Origin: an uncultured Candidatus Saccharibacteria bacterium | Lineage (GTDB): Bacteria > Patescibacteriota > Minisyncoccia > Phycocordibacterales > UBA9973 | Length of the DNA: 56,999 bases | Direction: 5' to 3' | Assembly (NCBI GenBank): GCA_964520225.1 | Contig: CAZFNV010000005.1 | Span: 1 to 56,999 of the forward strand | Part shown: positions 13,627 through 26,790 of the stretch, piece after piece | How positions within the stretch are numbered: position 1 is the stretch's first letter | Layout: every line of letters starts with the position of its first letter | Notes under the pieces: model-generated | The model's database searches: none | Seen by the model: only the letters and a program-made list of their open reading frames with translations | Told to the model about the DNA's origin: nothing | Program-made: the position numbers and the translations under genes

Positions 13627-14187
13627 CTAGTTGAGCATATTCTTCTCCACTAGTAGCGCCACGCAGACTCCGATGAAAGTAATAAGAATATATGCTGTCA
13701 TTATCGTCTGGTAACTCATACCGAAGCCGTCTGACATACCTAGGCCCAAAGCCGAAACCCACGACACCACCGACACAGCTCCAGAAGCGAATGCTACCCG
13801 CCTTACCGACCTCTCGCCTTTTGCAGTAAAGAATTTCTTTTTTAGTAAATGTGACCAAACATAAGTATTGAGTATATAGCCGTTCACAATAAGCACAGCT
13901 ATCACGCTCATCTTGGATAAAAATTTAGCCGAGGTCATGTACCCTGCCGGGTTAGACAGAAATATAAAAACGCCCGATAGAGCAATGATGAATAAACTGT
14001 AGAGAACAATCTTGGAAAATAATTCCAAAATTGTCATCTCTTTCTTGTTAAGGACCTTGTCTTTACTGAAAAAAGAAAAAAGCGCGTCTGACACTAACGC
14101 GCCACCCATGCCTACCACTACCGCGAGCACGTGCACCAGAGTCGCCTCCGCTTTCCAAGTATCAAAAAATTCTGTTATCTCCACCAA
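13627..14187 (-). CDS. Integral membrane protein, hypothetical
   Basis: 186 aa with about 5 TM segments. The start is uncertain (TTG/GTG right after a -10 box). Confidence 0.5.
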   Translation of the reverse strand: MVEITEFFDTWKAEATLVHVLAVVVGMGGALVSDALFSFFSKDKVLNKKEMTILELFSKIVLYSLFIIALSGVFIFLSNPAGYMTSAKFLSKMSVIAVLIVNGYILNTYVWSHLLKKKFFTAKGERSVRRVAFASGAVSVVSWVSALGLGMSDGFGMSYQTIMTAYILITFIGVCVALLVEKNMLN

Positions 14188-14271
14188 CTGATTTTACCCT
14201 GTAGTGAAACTTTTGCAAAGCTCCGTATTAAAAAAATTCTCCAGAAACGAAAGACACTGTGATTGTTTATA

Positions 14272-14607
14272 TCAAAGTTTATACAAATATTCTTTTATCC
14301 TATCTTTATCTTCATTTTCTTTTTCTCCTTTGAAATATACCTCTATGTACATAAATTTAATACTATTATTATGATACGCATAAATAAGACGGATTACTCG
14401 TGACCTTAATGATTCACAATGGACTCGTACTTTTATGATCGTTGTGTCACCTTCAATTTTAATTATAGTAAAATTCTTGCCGATTCCTGTAGGGCATTCA
14501 AGTAACACAGGCTTTATATCATCAATATCAGATAACAGTGTAGGATATTTCCTGGAAAGTTTTTTGAGTTCTTTTTCAAACTCAGGAAGCATAGAAAAAG
14601 TACTCAT
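14272..14607 (-). CDS. RelE/ParE-superfamily-like toxin (candidate PanT)
   Basis: 111 aa; FEKELKKLSRKYP...IIKVRVHCESLRSRVIRLIYAYH...IEVYFKGEKEN is the RelE/HigB-like pattern. It lies 5 nt downstream of the antitoxin gene. Confidence 0.5.
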   Translation of the reverse strand: MSTFSMLPEFEKELKKLSRKYPTLLSDIDDIKPVLLECPTGIGKNFTIIKIEGDTTIIKVRVHCESLRSRVIRLIYAYHNNSIKFMYIEVYFKGEKENEDKDRIKEYLYKL

Positions 14608-14612
14608 AGGAG

Positions 14613-15338
14613 TTAGTTGTCAGATACAGAAGTTTCGTCAGGGCGATAAAACACGTGTCTATAATTAAGTTCTTGCTTATCTTTTGCCACCCTCCAAGGT
14701 GTATCTTTGTGTGATAACTCAGACAATTCCTTCGCAGATTTTGAAGCCAAGCGAACAAGTTCGTCGTCAATATGTTTCAATTCTTGTGCAGACAACAAAG
14801 AAACATCTGGCTCTGATGTTACAAGATATTTCTTCTGATCATAATTAAAATGCTTGCTATTGACCTCAACCAGCTCACCCTCACTCTCCAAATCTCGAGC
14901 AATCTTCGCAAATGAAACCGGTGTAGGACCATACGTATTCCTAATATATTTTGCACCAATCAAATACCTTTGATATTTTTCATAATAATCAAAGTCTATA
15001 AAATAAAGGAGTTTATATAATGCGGTTTGCCCTATGTTTGGACGACTACCCACTTTACTAACAACATATAATAAAACTTGCTTGAAACGTTCAGTATTTT
15101 CTTTTGGAATTTCTTTTGGTTTAATTTCAAAATTCGTCTCCATATGAATATTTTCTTTCTCCGCTGTTTCTTTAGAAACACCGAAAATACTCGCCAAAAG
15201 CGCCTTTTGTTCTTCGGTTGGTTTGGACTCACCTTTTTCAAGCTTTATATACGTAGGACGAGAAATACCTAAAATCTTGGCGACTTCTGCTTGAGAAATA
15301 CCCGCCAATTTACGCTTTGTTTGTATCCAATTAGACAT
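14613..15338 (-). CDS. XRE-type HTH fused to a Panacea (DUF4065) antitoxin domain
   Basis: The N-terminal LAGISQAEVAKILGISRPTYIKLEKGE is the HTH. GQTALYKLLYFIDFDYYEKYQRYLIGAKYIRNTYGPTP is the DUF4065 signature. Confidence 0.75.
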   Translation of the reverse strand: MSNWIQTKRKLAGISQAEVAKILGISRPTYIKLEKGESKPTEEQKALLASIFGVSKETAEKENIHMETNFEIKPKEIPKENTERFKQVLLYVVSKVGSRPNIGQTALYKLLYFIDFDYYEKYQRYLIGAKYIRNTYGPTPVSFAKIARDLESEGELVEVNSKHFNYDQKKYLVTSEPDVSLLSAQELKHIDDELVRLASKSAKELSELSHKDTPWRVAKDKQELNYRHVFYRPDETSVSDN

Positions 15339-15375
15339 ATTAATATATTACCATAATATGCACATACTTATCAAC

Positions 15376-15395
15376 TTGACTGTGGATAATGTCAA
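15376..15395. promoter_or_regulatory. Inverted repeat in the XRE-Panacea promoter (candidate operator)
   Basis: TTGAC-N10-GTCAA lies upstream of TTGATA-N18-TAATAT-N6-ATG on the minus strand. Confidence 0.3.
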
Positions 15396-15549
15396 AATGT
15401 AAAATATGCGTATGGCAAAAATTAAAGGAAAATTAATACAAACAAATAACATTGGACCACTTCAGTATGTTAAAAGAAATAACTTGTCTGGTGATTTCTC
15501 GCATATTGTAAAAACTAAACAAATACCAAAAGGAAAGAAAAAGTCATAG

Positions 15550-15628
15550 CCCCCGCCTCAAAAATTTTCCGCCGAAAATTTTTAGGTGCAGTTTGCCTGC
15601 TTCTCCCATCCCGCCTACGGCGTGCTGG
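15550..15628. repeat. Repeat copy A: CCCCCG + A/T hairpin block, then a 41-bp block
   Basis: 15588-15628 (gcagtttgcctgcttctcccatcccgcctacggcgtgctgg) is identical 41/41 to 19187-19227. The hairpin block ctcAAAAATTTTCCGcCGAAAATTTTT is shared with 19084-19110 apart from one base. Confidence 0.85.
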
Positions 15629-15749
15629 CCTTGTGGCGCGAAGTTGGAACAATTGTAAGCCAATATCAAACATATGTCCATAAATAAACCAATTAAAAAA
15701 ACGGTCTGATTTTGTTGTATTTTTCCAGAAAAAGTATAATATCAACTAT

Positions 15750-16862
15750 ATGGAAAAGATCGAAAATACCACCACCTTACTTGACCCAATAAAGATCAAC
15801 TACTTCCACCCCGATAGCCTTCTTTTGGATGCTGAAAATCCTCGTTTTGCCGGCTTAATTGACTCAAAGGTTAGCAACAACGAACTCCTGAAAAAGCTCC
15901 GTAAGGAGATGTATTTGGACGAATTAATTGATTCTTTTCGAGAAAATGGTTATTACAATACCGAACCGCTTCTTGCCATAAAATCTAATAAGGATCCTAA
16001 AAAATTTATCATCATCGAAGGCAATAGAAGGCTCGCTGCTATTAAGTTGCTTTTGACTGACGAATTTAAAGGTAAAGTTGATAAGAAAATCATAAAGCAA
16101 CTTTCGACAGAAATTCCTGTTGCCGTATATCCAAGCAGAAAAACACTCTGGACTTATCTAGGTTTTAGACACATCAATGGGCCTAAAGAGTGGGATTCAT
16201 ACAGTAAAGCTGTATATGCACTGACGGTTCATGTTGAATATAAAATTCCCATAAAAGATATCGCTGACAAAATCGGCGACAAAAATCAAACTGTTGTAAA
16301 AATGTGTAATGGATTGAGATTATTACAACAAGCTGAAAAACAAGGTTATTTTTCTTCTGAAGATGTTGACTTAAAACGTTTTTATTTTTCTCACTTATAC
16401 ACTATTATTCAGAAAAATAACACTAAGAGTTTTTTAGGGCTTCCATCAAAGACGAATGAAGTATTCAAGGCAAATCCTGTATCCAAAAGTAAAATAAAAA
16501 ATTTACAACTTCTCTTAAACTTATTGTTTGGTAGCAAGGATGGTTCCGTAAAACCGGTTATTAAATCACAGAACCCAGATTTAAGAAACTTAGATGAAAT
16601 TATTGGAAATAAAAAAGCTTTAAAGTATCTTACTGAAAACAAGACAGAAAGTAATGTATTGGATAATGCTCTTAGTTTCACTGGAAGTGAAGAATCGGTC
16701 TTGGAAAGCCTTATGTTTAAATCTTTAAACACTCTAAGAAAAGCTAGCGGTATGCTATATAGTTACAAGGGGGATGATGAAACTTACAAAGAAGCCAAGG
16801 AAATAGAAACTGTTGCTAACTATATAGTTGCTCAGATGGAAATAAAGCGGAAGAAAAAATAA
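15750..16862 (+). CDS. ParB/Sulfiredoxin N-terminal-domain protein
   Basis: 370 aa; LLDAENPRF ... FIIIEGNRRLAAIKLL is the ParB-type GxRR box. TTGTTG-N17-TATAAT lies 9 nt upstream of the ATG. Confidence 0.6.
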   Translation: MEKIENTTTLLDPIKINYFHPDSLLLDAENPRFAGLIDSKVSNNELLKKLRKEMYLDELIDSFRENGYYNTEPLLAIKSNKDPKKFIIIEGNRRLAAIKLLLTDEFKGKVDKKIIKQLSTEIPVAVYPSRKTLWTYLGFRHINGPKEWDSYSKAVYALTVHVEYKIPIKDIADKIGDKNQTVVKMCNGLRLLQQAEKQGYFSSEDVDLKRFYFSHLYTIIQKNNTKSFLGLPSKTNEVFKANPVSKSKIKNLQLLLNLLFGSKDGSVKPVIKSQNPDLRNLDEIIGNKKALKYLTENKTESNVLDNALSFTGSEESVLESLMFKSLNTLRKASGMLYSYKGDDETYKEAKEIETVANYIVAQMEIKRKKK

Positions 16863-16863
16863 G

Positions 16864-17769
16864 ATGGCTGTTTTCATAGATTTACCTAAAATTCGTCAGA
16901 ATAATAAATTACAACTTTCTGACTGGATGGAAATAAGTGCTCTACTGGATAATTCCGATAATTCTTCCAGCCTTGAAGAGCTTATATCTCTTCTTAAGGT
17001 TTCTACTGATGATTCTGATGAGATCAGAGCGGATGTTTCTGCAGAGTTAATTTCTAGAACAAAAAAGCTTTCTACTGCATACCCTTTTTCGTTCAATGGA
17101 ATTATCCTCAAAGTAAAAAACCCTAAAGACTTTAGCAATCAATGGGCTTACATATTTTGTTTACTCATTTCTTATTTTGGTGTGAACAAGGGAGATTTAG
17201 GACTCTCACTCTGGAAACAAAAAGATGTTACTTCTTTATTTGAACACATTTCCACCATAGCAGCCAAACACTTTCTTTCCTCAAGTGAACATGAGGCAAA
17301 AGAGTTGAAATTTGGTTTTCCCAGAGATAGTTTAGATAAGAAATATAAATCTTTTAAAGCAGCACTAGAACTTTTAAAAAATGTAATTCAAGAAGGTACT
17401 CTTACTACTAATCCCAGCTATAGAAATCAAAAGGATGCTGGTCTTGATATTGTCGTCTGGAGAAATTTCCCTGATGGAAAAACAAATAAACTTTTACTAC
17501 TTGGTCAGTGTGCGGCTGGTAATGATTTTAAACAGAAAAGAAAAGATATACAAAAAATCGAAGGATTTTTCACTTTTCTCACAACCCCAATTAAAGGATT
17601 TTTTATTCCTCACGAGTTAGATGATGAAATATGGGGAGAACTTAGCTTTGATAGTTACATAGGAATTATATTTGATCGTAGTCGTATTGCATCTTACGCA
17701 AAAGCGTGGAATGGGCAAGGTTTTATATCGAATTTTGAGGCCATAAAGAACAAACTGAGGAAAAAATAA
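16864..17769 (+). CDS. Hypothetical protein, possible degenerate PD-(D/E)xK (Mrr-like) nuclease core
   Basis: 301 aa. It starts after a 1-nt gap from the ParB-like gene. DAGLDIVVW...LLLLGQCAAGNDFKQK resembles a D...QxK core, but the Lys position is Ala. Confidence 0.3.
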   Translation: MAVFIDLPKIRQNNKLQLSDWMEISALLDNSDNSSSLEELISLLKVSTDDSDEIRADVSAELISRTKKLSTAYPFSFNGIILKVKNPKDFSNQWAYIFCLLISYFGVNKGDLGLSLWKQKDVTSLFEHISTIAAKHFLSSSEHEAKELKFGFPRDSLDKKYKSFKAALELLKNVIQEGTLTTNPSYRNQKDAGLDIVVWRNFPDGKTNKLLLLGQCAAGNDFKQKRKDIQKIEGFFTFLTTPIKGFFIPHELDDEIWGELSFDSYIGIIFDRSRIASYAKAWNGQGFISNFEAIKNKLRKK

Positions 17770-17823
17770 TTGGCTGGCAATGGGTTGTGGCCATTTATAA
17801 TCTAATATGTTAAAATAAGCTTA

Positions 17824-18669
17824 ATGATTTATTCACCTCTGCGATATCCTGGAGGAAAAAATAAAGTCTCGAAGTTTATTCAAGATGAGGTTTTTAATGT
17901 TAACGATTTAAAGGGTGGTGTATATGTTGAGCCATACGCTGGAGGTGCTTCTGTTGCGTTAAATCTTTTGATAGAAAAAAAAGTATCAAAAATAATAATT
18001 AACGACTACGATAGATCGGTTTACGCTTTTTGGTATTCTGTTTTGAATGATACAGATGCATTTTGTGAAAAAATTAAAAAAGCACCCATTACAATAAAGA
18101 ATTGGAAAAAACAAAAAGAGGTACAAAAGCATAAAAAACAAGCTTCTCTTTTTGATCTTGGCTTTTCGACTTTTTTCTTAAATCGTACGAACCGATCAGG
18201 AGTGATCTCTGCTGGACCAATAGGTGGACTAAATCAGAAAGATAAGTGGAAAATTAATGCTAGGTTTAATAAAAAAAATCTTATTGAACGAATTAGATTA
18301 ATTGCTCAGCATAAAAATAATATAAAAATATATCAACTAGACGCGGTTAAACTTATTGAAAAGATTTCAAAAAAACTACCCGACAAAACACTTATATACT
18401 TTGATCCTCCTTACTATGTAAAAGGGCAAAAATTATACGTTAACTTTTATACGCATGAAGATCACATCTTAGTCGCAAATGCGGTAAAAGATATTAACGG
18501 TCCTAAGTGGATAGTTTCTTATGACAATGTAAAACCTATTGCTAATCTTTATACCAAATATAGAAAGAGAGTATATGACTTACCGTACAGTGTAATAAAT
18601 GGAACTACAGGAAAAGAAGTTATGTTTTTCAGTAAAAATCTAAAAATTAATTCTAAATTTCTTAGTTAA
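17824..18669 (+). CDS. DNA N6-adenine methyltransferase, D12 (Dam) class
   Basis: LRYPGGKNK, EPYAGGASVAL, FFLNRTNRSG and IYFDPPYY motifs. Confidence 0.85.
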   Translation: MIYSPLRYPGGKNKVSKFIQDEVFNVNDLKGGVYVEPYAGGASVALNLLIEKKVSKIIINDYDRSVYAFWYSVLNDTDAFCEKIKKAPITIKNWKKQKEVQKHKKQASLFDLGFSTFFLNRTNRSGVISAGPIGGLNQKDKWKINARFNKKNLIERIRLIAQHKNNIKIYQLDAVKLIEKISKKLPDKTLIYFDPPYYVKGQKLYVNFYTHEDHILVANAVKDINGPKWIVSYDNVKPIANLYTKYRKRVYDLPYSVINGTTGKEVMFFSKNLKINSKFLS

Positions 18670-18986
18670 TAGATGATACTTTTTTTAGCTACTTCTTTAA
18701 TTGCGTTAGCAATTTTTTCTAAATGAGTTTCGATTAACTGATTTGTAATTGATAGAGTATGGCATTTACTTTGGTCGGAATAATAAACACGGTTAAAGTC
18801 AAAAATAATTTGGAGTGGATTCGTGTAATGTTGTAAACCGTTAACTTCTATGTTCATAGGAACATCAGGGAGAAAAATATCTACATGCTTGTGCCCATCC
18901 CAGTATTCAAGCTGAGTTTTAATTCCTCGCTTATTTAATTCTTCAGCGAGTTTGAGAGTTTGTTTAGTTGAAATTATTTTTGGCAT
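18666..18986 (-). CDS. DUF559/Vsr-like small endonuclease-fold protein
   Basis: 106 aa; HVDIFLPDVPMNIEVNGLQH follows the DUF559 pattern (vDf...l.iEvDG..H). It overlaps the Dam gene's 3' end by 4 nt, convergently. Confidence 0.45.
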   Translation of the reverse strand: MPKIISTKQTLKLAEELNKRGIKTQLEYWDGHKHVDIFLPDVPMNIEVNGLQHYTNPLQIIFDFNRVYYSDQSKCHTLSITNQLIETHLEKIANAIKEVAKKSIIY

Positions 18987-19076
18987 AGACGCAAAAAGCC
19001 CATCACGGGTAGAGACCGAAGTCTCTCGTATTCGTTTCTAGATCTTGCTGGAACCCCAGGGCCCGCTCCGCATTCT

Positions 19077-19227
19077 CCCCCGTCTCAAAAATTTTCCGTC
19101 GAAAATTTTTGGACTGGGCACCTGCTCGTGGATTTTTATTGCTATAAAAATCACACTCCGCCGTTCTCGTCCTAGTCGCAGGCAAAGCAGTTTGCCTGCT
19201 TCTCCCATCCCGCCTACGGCGTGCTGG
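19077..19227. repeat. Repeat copy B: the same two blocks as copy A, split by a 76-nt GC-rich insert with extra hairpins
   Basis: 19077-19110 matches 15550-15583. 19187-19227 is identical to 15588-15628. The insert contains GTGGATTTTTAttgcTATAAAAATCAC and the palindrome gcaggcaaaGCAGtttgcctgc. Confidence 0.85.
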
Positions 19228-19281
19228 GTGTCTGGGATTGTATCCGAACGGAATTGTTGATAAATAAGGTTTAAAACTACT

Positions 19282-20385
19282 TTATACTCCAGACTTAGTT
19301 CGATTATCTTGTTTACATAACATCTGGCAATTTTCGGCTATAGTTTTTCCTCCTTCGTGCCATGGATTGATATGATCAGCTTCCATTTCTCCAATTGCAA
19401 ATTCCTTTTTACACACAGGACAAATACCATTTTGTCGTTCGTATGCTTCTCGCTTCATATTTGGTGTAAACGCTCGAATAGAGAGATATCTTTCTTTTCT
19501 AGTAAGCACATAAGGATAAATACCAGATTTTTTTGTTACATCTTCATTTTGCATTAATTCTTTAATTTCTTTTTCTAATTTTTTTGAATCAAGTTTTTTA
19601 TCCTTAAATGCATTGTAAAGTTCACCCCAATTTACACTAGACATCTCTTTTCTATAATTTGGAAAAGTTTCCCGCACCCAATGAATTACATTTTGAAAAT
19701 ATTTCCATAATGCGTCTGCGTTTTTATCATGCTGATGTTTTGCCATATAATCTTCTATCTTTTCATTATTTATCCACGATAAAGCAGTTTCTAGGTATTC
19801 TTGTCGAATAGGAGAACCTGTTATTAATTGTCCACCATCATTTGATAGTAAATATGCCACACAATTTGATTTACTAAATTTCAATTTTGCATCAGAAAGC
19901 CATGGGCCAGTATATACGGCATTTCTTAATTCTTGGTCAGTTAGTTTTTCACCAGCAATATTAATAATTTTAAACCAGTCAAGTTTTTCCTTATCGTTTC
20001 CTTCACAATGGTAAATCATAAGATCATAATTCATAATCTGATTTTGTTCTTCTTTGGTTAAATTATGAAACATTGCTATTCGTCCATTAAATTCAATAGA
20101 AAAATCTCCATTTACATATTGAGCGATACTGATTGTTCGTTGTTGTCCATCAAGCACTTCAAAATTACCATCTTCTTTCTTAACCCAATACATAACATTA
20201 AGCGGAAAACCATTTTTGATAGTATTTATCACTTCATCTCGTTGTTTTCCGCTATATACAAACTCTCTTTGGTATTTTGGGCGAATATCTAACTTACCAC
20301 CAAAAGCAGATACGCCTTCCTCGGCACTATCTTTATAGTTCTTAATAACTTCTGAAATTTTTATTTTATGTAAATTTATTTCCAT
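19282..20385 (-). CDS. DUF262 (ParB-like, GmrSD N-domain) fused to an HNH nuclease
   Basis: IRPKYQREFVY...FEVLDGQQRTISI is the DUF262 DGQQR box. The C-terminal CPVCKKEF...EADHINPWHEGGKTIAENCQMLCKQDNRTKS is the HNH. Confidence 0.8.
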   Translation of the reverse strand: MEINLHKIKISEVIKNYKDSAEEGVSAFGGKLDIRPKYQREFVYSGKQRDEVINTIKNGFPLNVMYWVKKEDGNFEVLDGQQRTISIAQYVNGDFSIEFNGRIAMFHNLTKEEQNQIMNYDLMIYHCEGNDKEKLDWFKIINIAGEKLTDQELRNAVYTGPWLSDAKLKFSKSNCVAYLLSNDGGQLITGSPIRQEYLETALSWINNEKIEDYMAKHQHDKNADALWKYFQNVIHWVRETFPNYRKEMSSVNWGELYNAFKDKKLDSKKLEKEIKELMQNEDVTKKSGIYPYVLTRKERYLSIRAFTPNMKREAYERQNGICPVCKKEFAIGEMEADHINPWHEGGKTIAENCQMLCKQDNRTKSGV

Positions 20386-20386
20386 A

Positions 20387-21556
20387 TTATTTTTGTGGTT
20401 TTTTATTTTTAATTAAAATTCTCATATAAACAACTTTTAATTCGCCATTTACATTAACAACTGGACCCCTATTAAGGTCATTATAATTTTTCGCATCTTC
20501 TATTGTATAAGTTTTTGTTCTTACACCTTCAGAGTTTTGTCTATCTGCTATCCAAATTATTTCAAACTGATCTGGGTTATATTTATCAAGAAAAGTAATT
20601 GGTACACCAATAACACCCTCATAATCCATTGGAATATCTGAAACTTTATTTACATTTATCGCTTCGTAGTTATCATACTTCGGATATTCTTTTGATGAAT
20701 ATTTTTTATAAAAAACCAAGTTTTCATGTCGCTTACCCGTATCAAGATTTGTATACCAATTTACTGCTGGAACTTTAACATACCCATCATTCGGGTTATA
20801 GCCTTTCCCTTTAACAAATTGCTTGTTGGCTTCAAGATCATTACTATAAGGAGTTTTATATACCATTGACATATTGAAACCATAACCAGACCATAATTTA
20901 TTTTCTTTTATCAATCTAAAAACTTCTTTATATGTAATTGCGTTCATATTTCCTAAAATTAAAAACTTCTTATTATATTCAATTAATTGAGCAACGTATT
21001 CTCTAAACAATGAAAATGGAGGATTGGTTACCACAATATCTGCTTGTTTTAAAAGCTCAACACTTTCTGGACTTCGAAAGTCTCCATCACCTTCCATTGG
21101 TGACCATTCGTTATTTTTATTTGATTTAAGTTGTTCAGCAATATCTCGCAAATCAAAAGCTCCATCGCCATCGAGATCATGAACTTCATTTATAATAAAT
21201 TTATTAGCATTCACTTTTGGGCGACCTTTTGGCGTACTAAGTGTTTTATTGTCACCAAATAATCCTAGTTGAGTATTAGCAATCGGTGATGGCTTGTAAC
21301 TCGTAGCGATAAGTTTCTTCAAACCTAAAGCATTAAAATTTGAGGCAAAATATTTAAAAAAATTACTTTCAAAAGGATCATCACAATTGCAATATACTAC
21401 CTTATTGCGAAACTGATCTTTGTAATGTTTTAACTCTTTTTCAATATCAACAAGCTGGGTATAAAACTCATCTTTTTTTGCTTGGTTAGCTTTGTGTAAG
21501 TTTTTGTTTGAAGATTTACTTTTCGTATTTTTAGCCATAAACCTATTATAACTCAA
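20387..21556 (-). CDS. N6-adenine DNA methyltransferase, M.EcoRI family
   Basis: As I recall M.EcoRI, the match runs along the length: KKDEFYTQLVDIEKEL, VVYCNCDDPFESNFFKYF, GDGDFRSPES, IVVTNPPFSLFREY, YPKYDNYEAINVNK, GVPITFLDKYNPDQFEI. Confidence 0.8.
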   Translation of the reverse strand: MSYNRFMAKNTKSKSSNKNLHKANQAKKDEFYTQLVDIEKELKHYKDQFRNKVVYCNCDDPFESNFFKYFASNFNALGLKKLIATSYKPSPIANTQLGLFGDNKTLSTPKGRPKVNANKFIINEVHDLDGDGAFDLRDIAEQLKSNKNNEWSPMEGDGDFRSPESVELLKQADIVVTNPPFSLFREYVAQLIEYNKKFLILGNMNAITYKEVFRLIKENKLWSGYGFNMSMVYKTPYSNDLEANKQFVKGKGYNPNDGYVKVPAVNWYTNLDTGKRHENLVFYKKYSSKEYPKYDNYEAINVNKVSDIPMDYEGVIGVPITFLDKYNPDQFEIIWIADRQNSEGVRTKTYTIEDAKNYNDLNRGPVVNVNGELKVVYMRILIKNKKPQK

Positions 21557-21582
21557 AAGGATATATAAAACTAAAGAAGAAT

Positions 21583-23022
21583 TTATTTATTAATTCCTAA
21601 CGTTTTCTTTGCTTTTTGTATAAAAATACTCATTTCTTTATCGTTTTCATAAGTATCTATAAAATCTTTTAAGATTATACTCCCTTTTTGCTTATCTTTT
21701 TTAAGGTATGTTACGAACCCTTCAATAAATATGAGATAAGGGTAAAAATTGGTTTTTTTTCTTCGCTCAATAAACTCAAAAACAGAATCAATTGATCCTT
21801 TTGACAATGAACCTCTTCTTAAAGCCTCATCATACAATTCAATTCCAGACTGAAATTTTTTATCTCGTTCAATTTTAAGAAATGCCTTACTTAATTTAAA
21901 GGATGCATCTTGTGGGTAGCGAGAAGCTTCTTCTAGGTGAGAATCAACTTTTTGTTCATACCCAGCACCTTTTAGGTAATAGTGGTGTGCTAAACTTAAG
22001 TTAGCATAATAATAATTCGGTTTGAATTCTAATGATTTCTCTTGATATTTTATGGCTTCATCAATATTGCCTTGACTGTAATAAAAACCGCCTATTAAAT
22101 TATTTTCTATTGCTAATAATTCTTTAGTTCTTGATAAGAGAGTTTTAAGATAGTATTCAGTTATACACCTAGGCTCTAATATTTGTAATAATCTTTCATG
22201 GTATTTCATAGCAACACCAACTTGTCCTGATACATATGCGGAAGAACCAAGAGAAAATAATATATTTTCTCTTATATTATCAGTAACTACTTCTAGTGCT
22301 CTCATCTCTTCTGCTACTGGGAAATCCCAAGGTTGAGTAATTAAAAAACTTGTAAATTCTTTACCCAAGTCTTCGCTAGTTTTTATATTGATTGGTTTGT
22401 GTTTTACGACATAATTAGGCTCTAGTTTGTAAAATTCCTTACCACCCTTGGATGATTTTTTTACTGATCCAAATAAAATAAAATTCCATTTTATTTTATC
22501 CATATTGACTTTCCATCTAGATTTTTTAAAGAGAGGATTCCAGAATTTATCTTTTTCCCTAATAATCTTTCTACTTTTATATTCATCCAACGATATAACA
22601 TGGAAAATATCTCCAAATCCTACATTACTAAGTGTGTCATCAATTTCTTTATAAATTTTAAAAATAAAAGATTTTGATTCCTTGTCCTCATATTTATTTG
22701 ATATCCCTATGTATACACCGACTTTATTTTTTGGGGTTTTTGGATATTTTATTTTTTGAAAAATTATTAAAAATAATAATAACCATATTAATGAAATTCC
22801 CCATAAATAAGTAAAGGTAATGTTGCTAGAAATATTACTTTGCAAAAAAATTTTATTTATCGTTACTGCTTCATGAAAAGTGGCTATAAAAGGAATAGAA
22901 AGTATACTTGTAAGTAAAATCACACCTAATGGTTTTTGCCAGTTATCTAAAAGCCATTGTTTTACATAAGTAAAAACAAAATCTTCTGCTTCTTTTTCTG
23001 TTCTCTTAAATATTCCGATCAT
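21583..23022 (-). CDS. Membrane-anchored TPR-repeat protein, function unknown
   Basis: 479 aa with two N-terminal TM segments and an unassigned central domain. The C-terminal repeats are TPR-like (GGFYYSQGNIDEAIKYQEKSLEFKPNYYYANLSLAHHYY). Confidence 0.55.
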   Translation of the reverse strand: MIGIFKRTEKEAEDFVFTYVKQWLLDNWQKPLGVILLTSILSIPFIATFHEAVTINKIFLQSNISSNITFTYLWGISLIWLLLFLIIFQKIKYPKTPKNKVGVYIGISNKYEDKESKSFIFKIYKEIDDTLSNVGFGDIFHVISLDEYKSRKIIREKDKFWNPLFKKSRWKVNMDKIKWNFILFGSVKKSSKGGKEFYKLEPNYVVKHKPINIKTSEDLGKEFTSFLITQPWDFPVAEEMRALEVVTDNIRENILFSLGSSAYVSGQVGVAMKYHERLLQILEPRCITEYYLKTLLSRTKELLAIENNLIGGFYYSQGNIDEAIKYQEKSLEFKPNYYYANLSLAHHYYLKGAGYEQKVDSHLEEASRYPQDASFKLSKAFLKIERDKKFQSGIELYDEALRRGSLSKGSIDSVFEFIERRKKTNFYPYLIFIEGFVTYLKKDKQKGSIILKDFIDTYENDKEMSIFIQKAKKTLGINK

Positions 23023-23051
23023 GTAATAATTTTTACTTTTTTACATTAATT

Positions 23052-24131
23052 TTAATCTTTTTCTTCTTTTTTCTTTTCATTTTTTCTTTCAGCTTTTAAT
23101 TTAAGTTTCATACCAGAAATTTCTAATACTTGAGATGCAGAAATAAATGCGGGATTATTCATCATTTTTAAACCTTCCACAAAACCTTTTGATTGTTCTT
23201 GGGTCGGCTCTCCTTTAACGATAGGATCAAGAAGGGTTTTTGTTATAGAAAATGTGTCATAAAAAAATGAGATGAAAGGATCGTGCCTTGCATCTTTAAA
23301 AGCATCCTCTGTAAAATACTTAACTGCTTCATCAAGACCCAAGAAAAGAATCTTGTCATTGTGATTATTTAAAATCTTAATTCCTTTTTTCTCAAAACTA
23401 GAGATGTAATTGGGTACATTTTGATTAATGTAATTTATGATATACCAACCCCAATCTTCCAATAAAATTTCATTTATTATTCCTGTGTCAGTAATGTAGA
23501 CTTTTTTACTTAACATACTTAAAGTTTTACCCATGTTCGTTTCATTTTCTGGTTCAGAAAAAATTTTAAAAACACCAATAGCCATACAAGTAAGTAATAG
23601 TTTCGGTTGAATGGTATTCAGTTTACTGAATTGTTCTTGAAATTCTTTAACATCTTCTTTCGGAATTTTATCTGATATTTCAATCTCGGCTTTAATCACA
23701 TCAATTGTATTATCTAAAATGTCTCCTTGTATAACCATAGTTCCCCAATCTTCTTCGTCTATGATTTTGTGCAATACGCTTTTATAAAGATTGGCAATAA
23801 ATAAATTATTACTTTCATTATCTTTTAAACCAAACTTAACTGCATATCTAGAAAAATTTCTTTCAATATTTTCTTTTTTGATTTGTGGTTCTTTTTTACC
23901 ACACTCACCCCTACAATCTAAATCACAACGATAATTTCTGTCTGAAACTCTAAGATAATGTTTTGATGAAGCAAATCTCAAAACACCCTTTTTAAAGAAG
24001 GGCGGTTTTGTTATTTCGTATGGTATTGTTTTTGGTTCTTTTTTCATTCCGCAAATAATATCCTTATTTTTTAAGGTTTTTGAAATTTTTCCTAAATTTC
24101 CGTCAAACCCCTCTTGGTATCGTATTCGCAT
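23052..24131 (-). CDS. Hypothetical protein (359 aa), Cys cluster near the N-terminus
   Basis: Long clean ORF containing CDLDCRGEC. No family was recognised. The true start may be the ATG at 24047 (MKKEPK), because the ATG at 24131 overlaps the divergent ATG at 24130. Confidence 0.45.
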   Translation of the reverse strand: MRIRYQEGFDGNLGKISKTLKNKDIICGMKKEPKTIPYEITKPPFFKKGVLRFASSKHYLRVSDRNYRCDLDCRGECGKKEPQIKKENIERNFSRYAVKFGLKDNESNNLFIANLYKSVLHKIIDEEDWGTMVIQGDILDNTIDVIKAEIEISDKIPKEDVKEFQEQFSKLNTIQPKLLLTCMAIGVFKIFSEPENETNMGKTLSMLSKKVYITDTGIINEILLEDWGWYIINYINQNVPNYISSFEKKGIKILNNHNDKILFLGLDEAVKYFTEDAFKDARHDPFISFFYDTFSITKTLLDPIVKGEPTQEQSKGFVEGLKMMNNPAFISASQVLEISGMKLKLKAERKNEKKKEEKD

Positions 24132-24275
24132 GTTATCGTTTAGTCAATTATTAGTCGAACGTATCCAAAAGTATTTCAAAAGGAAATATAACTTGGATAT
24201 TTCTGATGAAACAGCAAATGAATACCTGCATACGTTGGGCGGTATGTTTGCTGTATTTGCTGAAAGTGAGGGAAA

Positions 24276-24313
24276 GCCCCCGCCCGATTCCCTTTATGGG
24301 GACGGGCGGGGGC
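24276..24313. other. 11-bp GC hairpin, candidate replication origin / nick-site hairpin for the adjacent Rep
   Basis: GCCCCCGCCCG-attccctttatgggga-CGGGCGGGGGC, about 80 nt upstream of the Rep start. It is the only GC-rich patch in this AT-rich stretch. Confidence 0.4.
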
Positions 24314-24391
24314 AACCTCCACGCTCTCCCTGACTTGATAGTTGCCTTATATTAGACGACTAAGAATTATAAGACTTAATACTAAAGTTTT

Positions 24392-25309
24392 ATGGGCTAT
24401 AACAAATTTATTAGAAGTGGTAACCAATTAGAATTATATGAATATGAAAAAGATTTACCAATACGACGAACTCAACGAAAACGAAAGATTTTTCGTGGAC
24501 AATCAGTCGGAACTAGAACCTTCATTGGAAGATCAGAAGAAGGCACAGATACGCTTAGAGAAATTCTTGGCGGAGGAAGGATTCAAGACGAAAGAGAAAC
24601 AATTTCTTCCAGAGAAAGGGATATACATAGTGAGAATATTTCTTCTAGCGGAACAGATACACTTCAACTTCAACAATTTGCACAAAAGAAACAGCAGAAA
24701 CGCAGAGATAACGCACAACGCTCTGGAATGGCTTTTAGAAGAATCGTCTGTTCTAACCTTGAACCAACTGAAAACCCTTTACTCATTACTCTTACCCACA
24801 AAGAAAATCTCGGAGATATTTCCGAAAGCAACAGATTGTTTAAACTTTTTATCCAGCGTGCGAGAATTAAATACGGTAGAACGTTCCGCTACATTGCCGT
24901 ACCGGAATTTCAACGACGTGGTGCTGTTCATTATCACGCTTTGTTCTGGGGGCTACCTATTGAACTATACTATCGAGAACGGCAAACTCGTGAACTTGCT
25001 AACATCTGGGGAAACGGATTTACCGACATTGTTTTAACTGATGGAAATGAAAAACTTTCTTCTTACTTAGCAAAATATATGATTAAAAATTTACAAGATG
25101 AACGTTTATGGAATCAGAAAGTATATTTTTGTTCTCGTAATATTAAACGTCCAGTAATAGTAAGCGGTTTTGAGACTTTTAGGTTTATCGAGAAAGACTA
25201 TAATTTAGAAGCTCTTACTCCCGTTTTGGAGAGAAAATATGATACTCAATGGCTAGGCGAAGGTCGATATAGATTATTTGATGCTTCCAATTTAAAAAAT
25301 TTAGAGTAA
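24392..25309 (+). CDS. rep: HUH rolling-circle replication initiator (Rep_1/pC194-like)
   Basis: Motif 1 LLITLTHKEN, motif 2 GAVHYHALFWG (HUH), motif 3 SSYLAKYMIKN (catalytic Tyr), in the canonical order. Confidence 0.7.
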   Translation: MGYNKFIRSGNQLELYEYEKDLPIRRTQRKRKIFRGQSVGTRTFIGRSEEGTDTLREILGGGRIQDERETISSRERDIHSENISSSGTDTLQLQQFAQKKQQKRRDNAQRSGMAFRRIVCSNLEPTENPLLITLTHKENLGDISESNRLFKLFIQRARIKYGRTFRYIAVPEFQRRGAVHYHALFWGLPIELYYRERQTRELANIWGNGFTDIVLTDGNEKLSSYLAKYMIKNLQDERLWNQKVYFCSRNIKRPVIVSGFETFRFIEKDYNLEALTPVLERKYDTQWLGEGRYRLFDASNLKNLE

Positions 25310-25323
25310 TATCTTTAGTAATT

Positions 25324-26790
25324 ATGAAATACATTATTTACTGCCGAAAATCACAAGAAAACGAAGATAGACAAGTAATGTCTTTGGAATCTCAAGAATC
25401 TGAAATGTTGCAAATTGCTAAGAAAAATAATTTGGAAGTTTTAGAAATTCTCCACGAAAGCAAATCAGCAAAATCTTTAGGTCGTCCCGTTTTTGCTAAA
25501 ATGATGGACACAATTAAAAAAGGAAAAGCTCAAGGAATTATTTGTTGGAAACTTGATCGTCTCGCAAGAAATTTTATTGATGGTGGTTTAATTATTGATT
25601 CTCTACAAAAAGGAATTATTAAAGAAATTCGCACTTATGAATCCGTCCATTTTCCAAATGAAACTGTTTTTCTTTTGGCTATGCAATTCGGAATGGCTAA
25701 TCAGTACAGCCGAGATTTATCTACAAATGTTAAACGCGGAAATCGGGCAAAATTAGAAAAGGGTGAATGGCCTAATCATGTTCCACTTGGATATTTGAAT
25801 GACAAAGCTACTAAGACAGCCAAGATAGATAAAAAGTTTGCCCCGTATGTTGTGCGTGCGTATGAACTATATTTAACTGGTGGTTATACTCTTCCTCAAA
25901 TTTCACAAATTTTATATGACGAAGGTTTAAGAACTAAAACAGGTGGTATGTGTCGCTCGAATCAAATTCATAGATTTTTTATAAATCGTTTTTATTGCGG
26001 AATGATGGAACGAGACGGAAAAGTTTATAACGGAAATCATAAAGCCATTGTTTCTATTTCTCAATTTAATCAAGCTCAAGAAATTTTACATAATAGACAA
26101 CACCCACACCCTAAGAAATATTTTTACTCTGCTCAAGGATTTTTAAAATGTGAAAATTGTGGTTGTTCTTTAACTGTTGATACAAGGAAAGGACATCAAT
26201 ATTATTATTGCACTAACGGCAAAGGTAACTGCGAAGAACATAGATCTTATATGCGATCTGAATATGTAGATGAGATTTTATCTGAAATGTTTAAAGTCCT
26301 TGCATTTGATAAGGAAATTATTGAAATTTCATACCAAGCATATAAAGAGTTAAATATGCAGAAAGCGGACTACGTGGATACCAGTAAAGATAACCTCTTA
26401 AACGAGCTAAATGGGCTTCTAGACAAGGAATCTCTCCTTGTAGATAGTTATACTTCCCAAGTGCTTAGGAAAGAATTATACGAGCAAAAAATGCTTGAGA
26501 TTGATAATAGGCGAACTGAATTAAATAAACAATTGAAAGAAATTGAACTGAAGGGTGCTTTATCTGAATCTACTCTCGAACAGATCAAAAAGGTATTTTT
26601 AGATGGAAATACAGCGTCAGAAAAGTATTTGACGTTAAATGATTATGAAAAGAGAAAGATGCTAGAAAAGTTACTCTCGAACGCAACATTCAAAAGTAAA
26701 AATATTGTTAATTATCAATTCAAAAAGTTGTTTTCTCCTATGGCAAATACACCTAAAAATTGTGATTTGCCGACTCTGCTGGGAGACTAG
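25324..26790 (+). CDS. Large serine recombinase (integrase)
   Basis: The N-terminal resolvase domain is YCRKSQENEDRQVMSLESQ...DRLARN. It is followed by a recombinase domain, a Cys zinc ribbon (CENCGCSL...YYCTNGKGNCEEH) and a coiled-coil tail. Confidence 0.9.
   Translation: MKYIIYCRKSQENEDRQVMSLESQESEMLQIAKKNNLEVLEILHESKSAKSLGRPVFAKMMDTIKKGKAQGIICWKLDRLARNFIDGGLIIDSLQKGIIKEIRTYESVHFPNETVFLLAMQFGMANQYSRDLSTNVKRGNRAKLEKGEWPNHVPLGYLNDKATKTAKIDKKFAPYVVRAYELYLTGGYTLPQISQILYDEGLRTKTGGMCRSNQIHRFFINRFYCGMMERDGKVYNGNHKAIVSISQFNQAQEILHNRQHPHPKKYFYSAQGFLKCENCGCSLTVDTRKGHQYYYCTNGKGNCEEHRSYMRSEYVDEILSEMFKVLAFDKEIIEISYQAYKELNMQKADYVDTSKDNLLNELNGLLDKESLLVDSYTSQVLRKELYEQKMLEIDNRRTELNKQLKEIELKGALSESTLEQIKKVFLDGNTASEKYLTLNDYEKRKMLEKLLSNATFKSKNIVNYQFKKLFSPMANTPKNCDLPTLLGD

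Follow-up and report, generated by a model that had tools for sequence, protein, structure and literature searches.

Two convergent gene modules that are unrelated in sequence and combine the same kinds of parts, a domain of the ParB superfamily, a nuclease and an N6-adenine methylase, raise the question of whether they represent one recurrent system or two that happen to be neighbors. Such modules face each other between positions 15,750 and 21,556 of a contig from an uncultured Candidatus Saccharibacteria bacterium (CAZFNV010000005.1, assembly GCA_964520225.1), analyzed here over a stretch of 56,999 nucleotides (the window). Cassette A, on the plus strand, comprises P1 (15750-16862; 370 amino acids), encoding a ParB-like protein; P2 (16864-17769; 301 amino acids), beginning 1 nt past the P1 stop codon and encoding a predicted PD-(D/E)xK-like nuclease; and P3 (17824-18669; 281 amino acids), encoding a methylase of the D12/Dam class. 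Cassette B, arranged tail to tail with the first on the minus strand, comprises P6 (20387-21556; 389 amino acids), the gene for an EcoRI-class N6-adenine methylase, whose stop codon lies 1 nt ahead of the start of P5 (19282-20385; 367 amino acids), which specifies a DUF262-HNH protein predicted to be a restriction enzyme. A small DUF559/Vsr-like gene, P4 (18666-18986, minus strand; 106 amino acids), separates the two.

We conclude, with a probability of roughly 0.65, that the region consists of two independent defense cassettes of the restriction-modification type, A being a relative of the prophage-borne system PD-λ-5 and B being of type II, carried by an island of low guanine-plus-cytosine (GC) content. 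A preliminary description of the locus had listed the same six genes, and ORF calls, profile matches and structure models agree with it as to their coordinates and domains. It had further proposed that the two modules belong to a single system class, a proposal that fared less well (see below).

P1 and P2 form a constant pair next to an interchangeable methylase

A profile search with P1, run on one genome per species, identified at least 555 stretches encoding a relative, the best 80 of which (32-61% identity, from many phyla) were analyzed. P2, located in these loci with a profile built from 29 of its homologues, lies within a few bases 3' of the P1 stop codon in 75 of the 80. Among the five loci without P2 in this place, one is cut by the end of the contig and two have a C5 cytosine methylase gene instead. 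A methylase gene of the D12 or the N6_N4 family is found within 300 nt of P1-P2 in 66 loci (69 when the distance is extended to 1.5 kb), as compared to three matches to these families in 530 kb of more distant flanking DNA from the same loci. The methylase does not occupy a fixed position. D12 genes precede the pair on the same strand in 25 loci and on the opposite strand in one; they follow it on the same strand in nine and on the opposite strand in five. Genes of the N6_N4 family follow P1-P2 on the same strand in 24 loci and precede it, again on the same strand, in two. In a spirochaete relative (35% identity), P1-P2 is likewise followed by an N6_N4 methylase gene. The pair is also present in all five IMG/VR viral contigs found, four of which have a D12 methylase gene downstream, as in the window. 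Thus, the co-occurrence of a ParB-like gene, a nuclease gene and a methylase gene, anticipated in the preliminary description, was recovered in the neighborhood survey (75/80 loci for the nuclease, 66/80 for the methylase). Because P1-P2 is fixed while the family, the side and the strand of the methylase vary, the trio can be read as a restriction-modification unit, of which a constant pair with a replaceable methylase is, as far as gene order tells, the signature.

The methylase of the window, P3, matches PF02086 at 8.9e-23, carries a DPPY motif at 18403-18414 and is recognized by the PADLOC MTase_II model at 6.3e-100. With this assignment, the plus-strand module is composed as previously described, with the ParB-fold protein and the nuclease encoded by separate genes and a methylase of the Dam class.

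One locus in the P1 set has an unusual composition. In a Phycisphaerae genome (L048, 4671-8498), a fragment from the N-terminus of an EcoRI-class methylase, sharing 50% identity with residues 13-144 of P6, precedes a D12 methylase gene, P1 and P2, after which comes a gene for a small HNH protein similar to the end of P5. The arrangement gives the impression that the trio was inserted into a pair of the P6/P5 type.

P1 is a predicted ParB-type protein

P1 matched nothing in Pfam above threshold. Its N-terminus matches many of the PADLOC models for PD-Lambda-5_A (best, 6.8e-17), and the protein also matches the PADLOC candidate PDC-M38A (1.2e-20) and phrog_3694 (2.2e-71); a match to TIGR00180 parB, at 2.5e-8, is under the cut-off. 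The AlphaFold2 model of P1 (mean predicted local distance difference test score, pLDDT, 87) resembles Noc, ParB and KorB over the CTPase-type N-terminal domain and the helix-turn-helix (HTH) domain (Foldseek E 2.5e-5, probability 1.0), and resembles sulfiredoxin more weakly; probabilities over these four proteins range from 0.96 to 1.0. The predicted layout is an N-terminal domain of the ParB-CTPase fold, an HTH domain and a helical C-terminal domain. All five residues of a Box II-like EGNRR motif (E90, G91, N92, R93 and R94; 16017-16031) are invariant in 83 homologues (100%); conservation of a Box I-like ENPR motif (15834-15845) amounts to 97-98%.

These Box motifs and the fold lead us to propose that P1 may be a nucleotide switch. 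ParB-fold proteins bind CTP, ATP or GTP, and neither sequence nor AlphaFold3 predicts which (2025 survey, PMC12704722). Going by its model, P1 shares with the CTP-dependent clamps ParB, Noc and KorB the N-terminal CTPase domain, the HTH domain and the Box II-like GNRR and Box I-like ENPR sequences. Unlike these proteins, it has a different C-terminal domain, an obligate nuclease neighbor and no ParA or partition context: no parA gene was found among the neighbors in the window or among the 25 commonest neighbor families listed for the P1 loci. Searches of PDB sequences with P1, P2 and P5 yielded nothing useful. In two loci (L028 and L049), the gene downstream of the P1 homologue codes for a C5 cytosine methylase and P2 is missing; the ParB-like protein can therefore take other partners.

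P2 belongs to a large family of predicted nucleases absent from Pfam, NCBIfam and PADLOC

No family in Pfam, NCBIfam or PADLOC matched P2, even when Pfam and PADLOC were searched at E<10. Having no match in PADLOC, P2 could therefore not be tied to PDC-M38, the candidate system whose A model is matched by P1 and of which no mention was found in the literature. P2 does match phrog_14650 (2.4e-36); a tblastn search of phage and plasmid records gave five weak matches, none with a useful annotation. The family is large, with 3240 clusters at 50% identity (E<=1e-3). The best 150 relatives are all stand-alone proteins of about 235-365 amino acids, with no fusion to P1 among them.

The AlphaFold2 model of P2 (pLDDT 88.9; predicted template modeling score 0.90) finds its best structural match in MspJI (Foldseek, probability 1.0) and also matches NgoMIV, Ecl18kI, Bse634I, BamHI and Can2/Card1. 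With scores that are modest, these matches suggest a PD-(D/E)xK-type fold, that is, a restriction-endonuclease-like αβββαβ core. In an alignment of 76 homologues, E127 (17242-17244), D191 and D195 (17434-17448) are at least 99% conserved, D204, R272 and R274 at least 96%, and C216 96%; in the model, the conserved residues fall on the helix-strand-strand elements expected of a PD-(D/E)xK core. Position 217, part of the Q215-C216-A217 sequence (17506-17514), is occupied by the canonical QxK lysine in 31 of the 76 homologues and by alanine in 41. Position 225 is lysine or arginine in every one of the 41 forms with A217, versus 4 of the 31 forms with K217. The window protein is of the former type, combining A217 with K225 (17536-17538), and thus reads QCA where QxK is expected. 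The catalytic lysine would appear, from this covariation, to have moved from position 217 to position 225. In light of the conserved acidic residues and of the covarying lysine, P2 is probably an active enzyme, the evidence being good, though indirect.

P2 is comparable to nucleases of the MspJI/Mrr type in having a D...QxK-type motif, with the canonical lysine in the 31 homologues mentioned above. It differs from them in showing no detectable sequence similarity, in having another N-terminal domain and, for the window protein, in the lysine at 225. A further difference is that MspJI is modification-dependent, whereas P2 is linked to a methylase.

Relation of cassette A to PD-λ-5

PD-λ-5, a two-gene defense system from an E. 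coli prophage, was obtained by experimental selection and gives protection from almost every phage tested (Vassallo et al. 2022, PMC9519451). The same study characterized it as a compacted combination of restriction-modification and abortive infection; its cloning required a host from which the mrr-containing region had been deleted (PMC9519451). Cassette A resembles it in several respects. P3 is a member of the PD-Lambda-5_B family (PDLC04018, 1.5e-120, covering residues 2-277 of 281), and P1 corresponds to approximately the first 250 residues of PD-Lambda-5_A, which comprise a ParB-like domain and an HTH domain (hhalign probability 99.65%, E 4e-25). In addition, the window trio too sits on a mobile element.

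There are also differences. Protein A of PD-λ-5 is about 430-500 amino acids long and is matched over its full length, whereas P1, with 370 amino acids, aligns only from profile position ~10 to positions 106-176; nothing in either P1 or P2 corresponds to the C-terminal half of protein A. PD-λ-5 consists of A and B only, whereas cassette A has three genes, and P2 is without a counterpart in PD-λ-5. Many relatives of the trio, unlike PD-λ-5, have a methylase of the N6_N4 family. The idea that P1 and P2 together are a split version of PD-Lambda-5_A was considered and rejected, as hhalign gave a probability of 0.5% for P2 against PD-Lambda-5_A.

Genuine full-length PD-Lambda-5_A genes do occur in related loci, with matches ranging from 1e-133 to 1e-183. 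In five loci (L014, L047, L060, L075 and L077), such a gene adjoins the same D12 methylase gene as P1-P2, and in the closest relative of the window (L085), P1-P2 is convergent with a complete PD-λ-5 A-B pair. Hence, in these six loci, two different ParB-type effectors appear to share one methylase.

Since P3 falls in the B family, P1 is homologous to the N-terminal part of A and P2 is unrelated to A, the trio is, by sequence comparison, a sister arrangement to PD-λ-5, with the same methylase family, a paralogous ParB-like sensor half and a different, separately encoded effector. We found no paper that describes the trio or links PD-λ-5 mechanistically to ParB, in a search that did not extend to REBASE and the newest DefenseFinder models.

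Cassette B is a predicted type II pair

P5 contains a GmrSD_N/DUF262 domain (PF03235, 5.7e-19) and an HNH domain (PF01844, 1.2e-11), and P6 matches EcoRI_methylase (PF13651) at 1.3e-141, so that the make-up of the minus-strand module, a DUF262-HNH fusion with an EcoRI-class methylase, is as originally described. Motifs recognizable in P5 are DGQQR (20137-20151), the HNH sequence EADHIN (19366-19383) and CxxC...CxxxC zinc ligands; P6 has NPPF at 21014-21025. P5 matches the PADLOC model REase_II PDLC03418 at 3.9e-136 (protein residues 1-365, profile positions 1-370 of 372) and P6 matches MTase_II PDLC03297 at 1.5e-122. P5 has at least 8000 homologues, of which the top 120 share 78-91% identity with it and, where named, are from bacteria of the candidate phyla radiation (CPR).

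Linkage was analyzed in 80 related metagenome loci (L087-L166), 62 of which have room for an upstream gene. In 59 of these 62, the P5 homologue is preceded by an EcoRI-class methylase gene in the same orientation. P5 and P6 resemble type II pairs with an HNH enzyme in matching the PADLOC models over their full length and in being encoded side by side, in one orientation and with tight linkage; no difference was detected between P5/P6 and such pairs (PDLC03418 with MTase_II PDLC03297). To judge from these profile matches and from gene order, P5/P6 is an ordinary and very common type II restriction-modification pair of an already known kind. As with P1-P2 and its methylase, the linkage of P5 to P6 is maintained in dozens of unrelated contigs.

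In GmrSD, BrxU and SspE, as in P5, an N-terminal DUF262 domain with a DGQQR-type motif precedes a C-terminal ββα-metal nuclease, and the DUF262 domain of those enzymes binds nucleotides. However, they are type IV or phosphorothioate-sensing enzymes that are directed against modified DNA and lack a cognate methylase, whereas P5 is methylase-linked in the 59 loci mentioned above. P5 further departs from the GmrSD type in carrying a classical PF01844 HNH domain in place of a DUF1524 C-terminal domain. Given the classical HNH domain and the tightly linked methylase, P5 is best read, at the level of domains and gene order, as a restriction enzyme that would be blocked by methylation.

The junction between the two genes is not always as tight as in the window. 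In seven loci inspected (L095, L097, L098, L100, L102, L110 and L112), the P6-like and P5-like genes are separated by a gap of about 610 nt that accommodates a 201-codon gene of the T5orf172/GIY-YIG-like type. Elsewhere (L099, L103, L120 and L143), the junction is the site of a Fic, Bro-N or AAA_15 ATPase gene. It thus looks like an insertion hotspot.

Working model and alternatives

The two cassettes would operate as follows. In cassette A, P3 would methylate adenines in a motif of the host DNA and P1 would read unmodified DNA through its HTH domain. On binding a nucleoside triphosphate (NTP), P1 would change state, possibly by closing as a clamp in the manner of ParB, Noc and KorB; it would then recruit P2 into a complex, or activate it, and P2 would cut the DNA. 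P1 and P2 together would therefore represent the restriction half of the system, blocked by methylation of its target and directed against phage. Of this scheme, the analysis covers the parts with their predicted folds, the conserved catalytic and nucleotide-motif residues, the linkage of P1 to P2, and the enrichment and exchange of the adjacent methylase; the other steps are inferred. In cassette B, P6 would mark host adenines and P5 would cut unmarked DNA. The cassettes would be neighbors by virtue of the tendency of defense genes to cluster on mobile islands, and not through a joint function. A more specific version of the scheme for cassette A, in which the trio stands for a widespread kind of restriction-modification system whose ParB-type, NTP-gated and possibly sliding clamp hands unmodified DNA over to a PD-(D/E)xK nuclease, is put forward tentatively, as a possibility with the odds against it.

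Several points speak against the interpretation of the region as two restriction-modification cassettes. The linkage survey concerns the 80 closest of at least 555 relatives of P1. In six of these 80 loci (L018, L038, L041, L042, L065 and L084), P1-P2 is intact and has no DNA methylase gene within 1.5 kb, its neighbors being housekeeping genes such as those for aconitase X, isopropylmalate synthase and PriA; this would be unusual for a lethal restriction enzyme, unless the methylase is encoded elsewhere in those genomes. The Foldseek scores of P2 are modest (best E 2.4e-3, TM-score about 0.3). The window P2 lacks the canonical lysine of QxK, compensation by K225 being deduced from covariation. 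Finally, the "type II" label of P5 comes from what a PADLOC model is called and not from an identified, characterized enzyme; the literature search did not identify the REBASE enzyme behind the REase_II model.

Among the alternatives, the one that survives best is that of the preliminary description, in which both modules are variants of one recurrent class, with a ParB-fold NTP switch gating a nuclease and adenine methylation providing self-protection. The shared domain logic is real: each module joins a nuclease and an N6-adenine methylase to a ParB-superfamily domain, which has EGNRR in P1 and DGQQR in P5 as its conserved nucleotide-motif residues. Moreover, NTP stimulates DUF262 enzymes, BrxU and GmrSD among them (review, PMC12707154), and the survey that reports nucleotide binding by ParB-fold proteins, be it of CTP, ATP or GTP, also records ParB-fold-HNH fusions (PMC12704722). 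The modules are, however, unrelated at the level of sequence, as the preliminary description itself had stated: hhalign assigned a probability of 1% to the relationship of the two ParB-type domains (a weak negative, as the P5 alignment is very low in diversity), and the nucleases are PD-(D/E)xK-like in one case and HNH in the other. Nor is the side-by-side placement recurrent. None of the 80 P5 loci carries P1, P2 or P3, and P5/P6-like fragments were seen in 1 of the 80 P1 loci, the Phycisphaerae locus described above. Both modules belong or relate to kinds already on record, with P5 included in a type II model and P1 and P3 in PD-λ-5. Neither P1 nor P5 is known to depend on NTP, and what the modules have in common may be the general logic of restriction-modification joined to a common sensor fold (PMC12065111). 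Of the original proposal the common logic is therefore retained, and a common class appears doubtful.

The main rival to the mechanism proposed for cassette A holds that P1-P2 is not restrained by the neighboring methylase. The pair would then be an abortive-infection or modification-dependent module, with the methylase serving another partner (PD-Lambda-5_A, for example) or shielding the mobile element against other restriction systems. This view draws on the six loci that have intact P1-P2 and no nearby methylase and on the likeness of P2 to MspJI, its best structural match and a modification-dependent enzyme; the six loci where PD-Lambda-5_A and P1-P2 are grouped around one methylase, and the description of PD-λ-5 as restriction-modification plus abortive infection (PMC9519451), would also be accounted for. 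Yet 66 of the 80 loci have a methylase gene no more than 300 nt from the pair, most of these loci being without PD-Lambda-5_A, and the occupation of the same slot by two methylase families fits a requirement for methylation as such. In the window itself, the methylase gene comes after P1-P2 in the same orientation, and there is no A gene for it to serve. An unrestrained P1-P2 is thus unlikely.

Still less likely is an exchange of roles between the two proteins, with P1 as the nuclease and P2 as a non-catalytic specificity or adaptor subunit built on a degenerate nuclease fold. The QCA sequence of the window P2 is what such a subunit might show, and some ParB-superfamily proteins are annotated as nucleases, including one P1 homologue that its JGI source labels "ParB-like nuclease domain". 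On the other hand, the conservation of E127, D191, D195 and the covarying lysine in 76 P2 homologues argues for a working active site, and P1 is structurally nearest to DNA-clamp CTPases rather than to nucleases. Lastly, that P1 acts on the island as a regulator of the partition or KorB type, functionally unlinked to P2 and P3, as the preliminary description had allowed for, agrees with its ParB/Noc/KorB-like fold and with the replication initiator and recombinase genes of the island, but this reading is close to refuted by the linkage data, with no parA gene nearby, P2 next to P1 in 75 of 80 loci from many phyla, mostly chromosomal, and a methylase close by in 66.

The cassettes lie on a mobile island

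GC content is about 0.27-0.39 across positions 14000-27000, approximately, and mostly 0.41-0.49 in the rest of the window. Toward its right end, the low-GC stretch carries the genes for a rolling-circle replication initiator (Rep; 24392-25309) and for a large serine recombinase with Resolvase, Recombinase and Zn_ribbon_recom domains (25324-26790, plus strand). The end of the recombinase gene overlaps a tRNA-Gln gene (26778-26849, minus strand), which marks the right edge of the island bearing both cassettes. The low GC content, the recombinase, Rep and the abutting tRNA gene identify the stretch as an integrative mobile island. Other genes within it specify a toxin-antitoxin-like pair (14272-14607 and 14613-15338; HTH_3 and SocA/Panacea antitoxin domains), a membrane/TPR protein (21583-23022) and a 359-amino-acid protein to which no function was assigned (23052-24131). 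Where their sources are named, the closest relatives of P1, P2 and P5 are from Parcubacteria, Sungbacteria, Nomurabacteria and other CPR bacteria. The genome that carries the island probably belongs to a CPR bacterium as well.

A structured repeat previously noticed between the two modules, at 19077-19227 between P4 and P5, is real, and a second, shorter copy that had been overlooked lies 5' of P1 (15550-15628). The two copies are GC-rich and in direct orientation, the right one being 72 nt longer, and together they flank P1-P4. An identical 41-mer common to both occurs twice only in the window, with no match in shuffled versions of the window. RNA folding of positions 19060-19260, which include the right copy, gave a z-score of -4.9; scans for Rfam families and tRNAs found nothing in the repeat. 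The copies may mark the limits at which the plus-strand cassette inserted or recombined.

P4, the gene between the modules, had been called DUF559-like. P4 itself has no direct match to Pfam DUF559 (PF04480), even at E<10, and the designation holds by way of its one clear homologue (2.4e-34), found downstream of a P5 homologue in one metagenome locus (L140, 5547-6173). This homologue, which is fused to a DUF3850 (PUA-like) domain, matches DUF559 at 1.6e-6 (28.4 bits, against a cut-off of 20.6) and has the DUF559-type sequence EVDG where P4 has EVNG. No P4 homologue was found in the other 79 P5 loci or in the P1 loci (L001-L086), and P4 is probably part of neither system.

Avoidance of palindromes within the window was non-diagnostic for GAATTC, AATT and GATC as a guide to the specificity of the methylases. 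The most depleted 4-base palindrome in the window is GTAC (72 observed, 142 expected; z = -5.9). Its depletion extends to both the island and the host part and is not assignable to either methylase.

Significance

ParB and DUF262 domains have been surveyed before as sensors of DNA or NTP in defense (PMC12065111, PMC12704722), and the possibility that such sensors, when adjacent to a methylase, target unmodified DNA has already been raised (PMC12065111). The Menshen NsnA/ParB-DUF262 modules (PMC12065111) are alike in concept, with a ParB-type and a DNA-binding domain as the DNA sensor and a separate effector, and P5 matches NsnA at 9.8e-27. They differ from cassette A in employing an ABC ATPase and inPIN-nuclease effectors without a dedicated methylase, whereas P1 has a classical ParB-type domain, not DUF262. 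What is new here is a PD-λ-5-related trio with a large nuclease family that has no name in the libraries searched. Because neither Pfam nor NCBIfam nor PADLOC includes this family, current defense annotation would either miss the trio or mislabel it as a partial PD-λ-5. Being compact (three genes in less than 3 kb), the trio is directly testable.

PD-λ-5 is a validated system, and the ParB-like sensor half of its A protein is found here as a stand-alone protein with a different effector. Should the ParB-type domain prove to be a nucleotide switch, it would link the expanding field of ParB CTPases to restriction enzymes. If the NTP-gated clamp described above were true, P1-P2 would be the first case of a restriction enzyme based on the ParB CTPase switch, and the same principle would also explain PD-λ-5.

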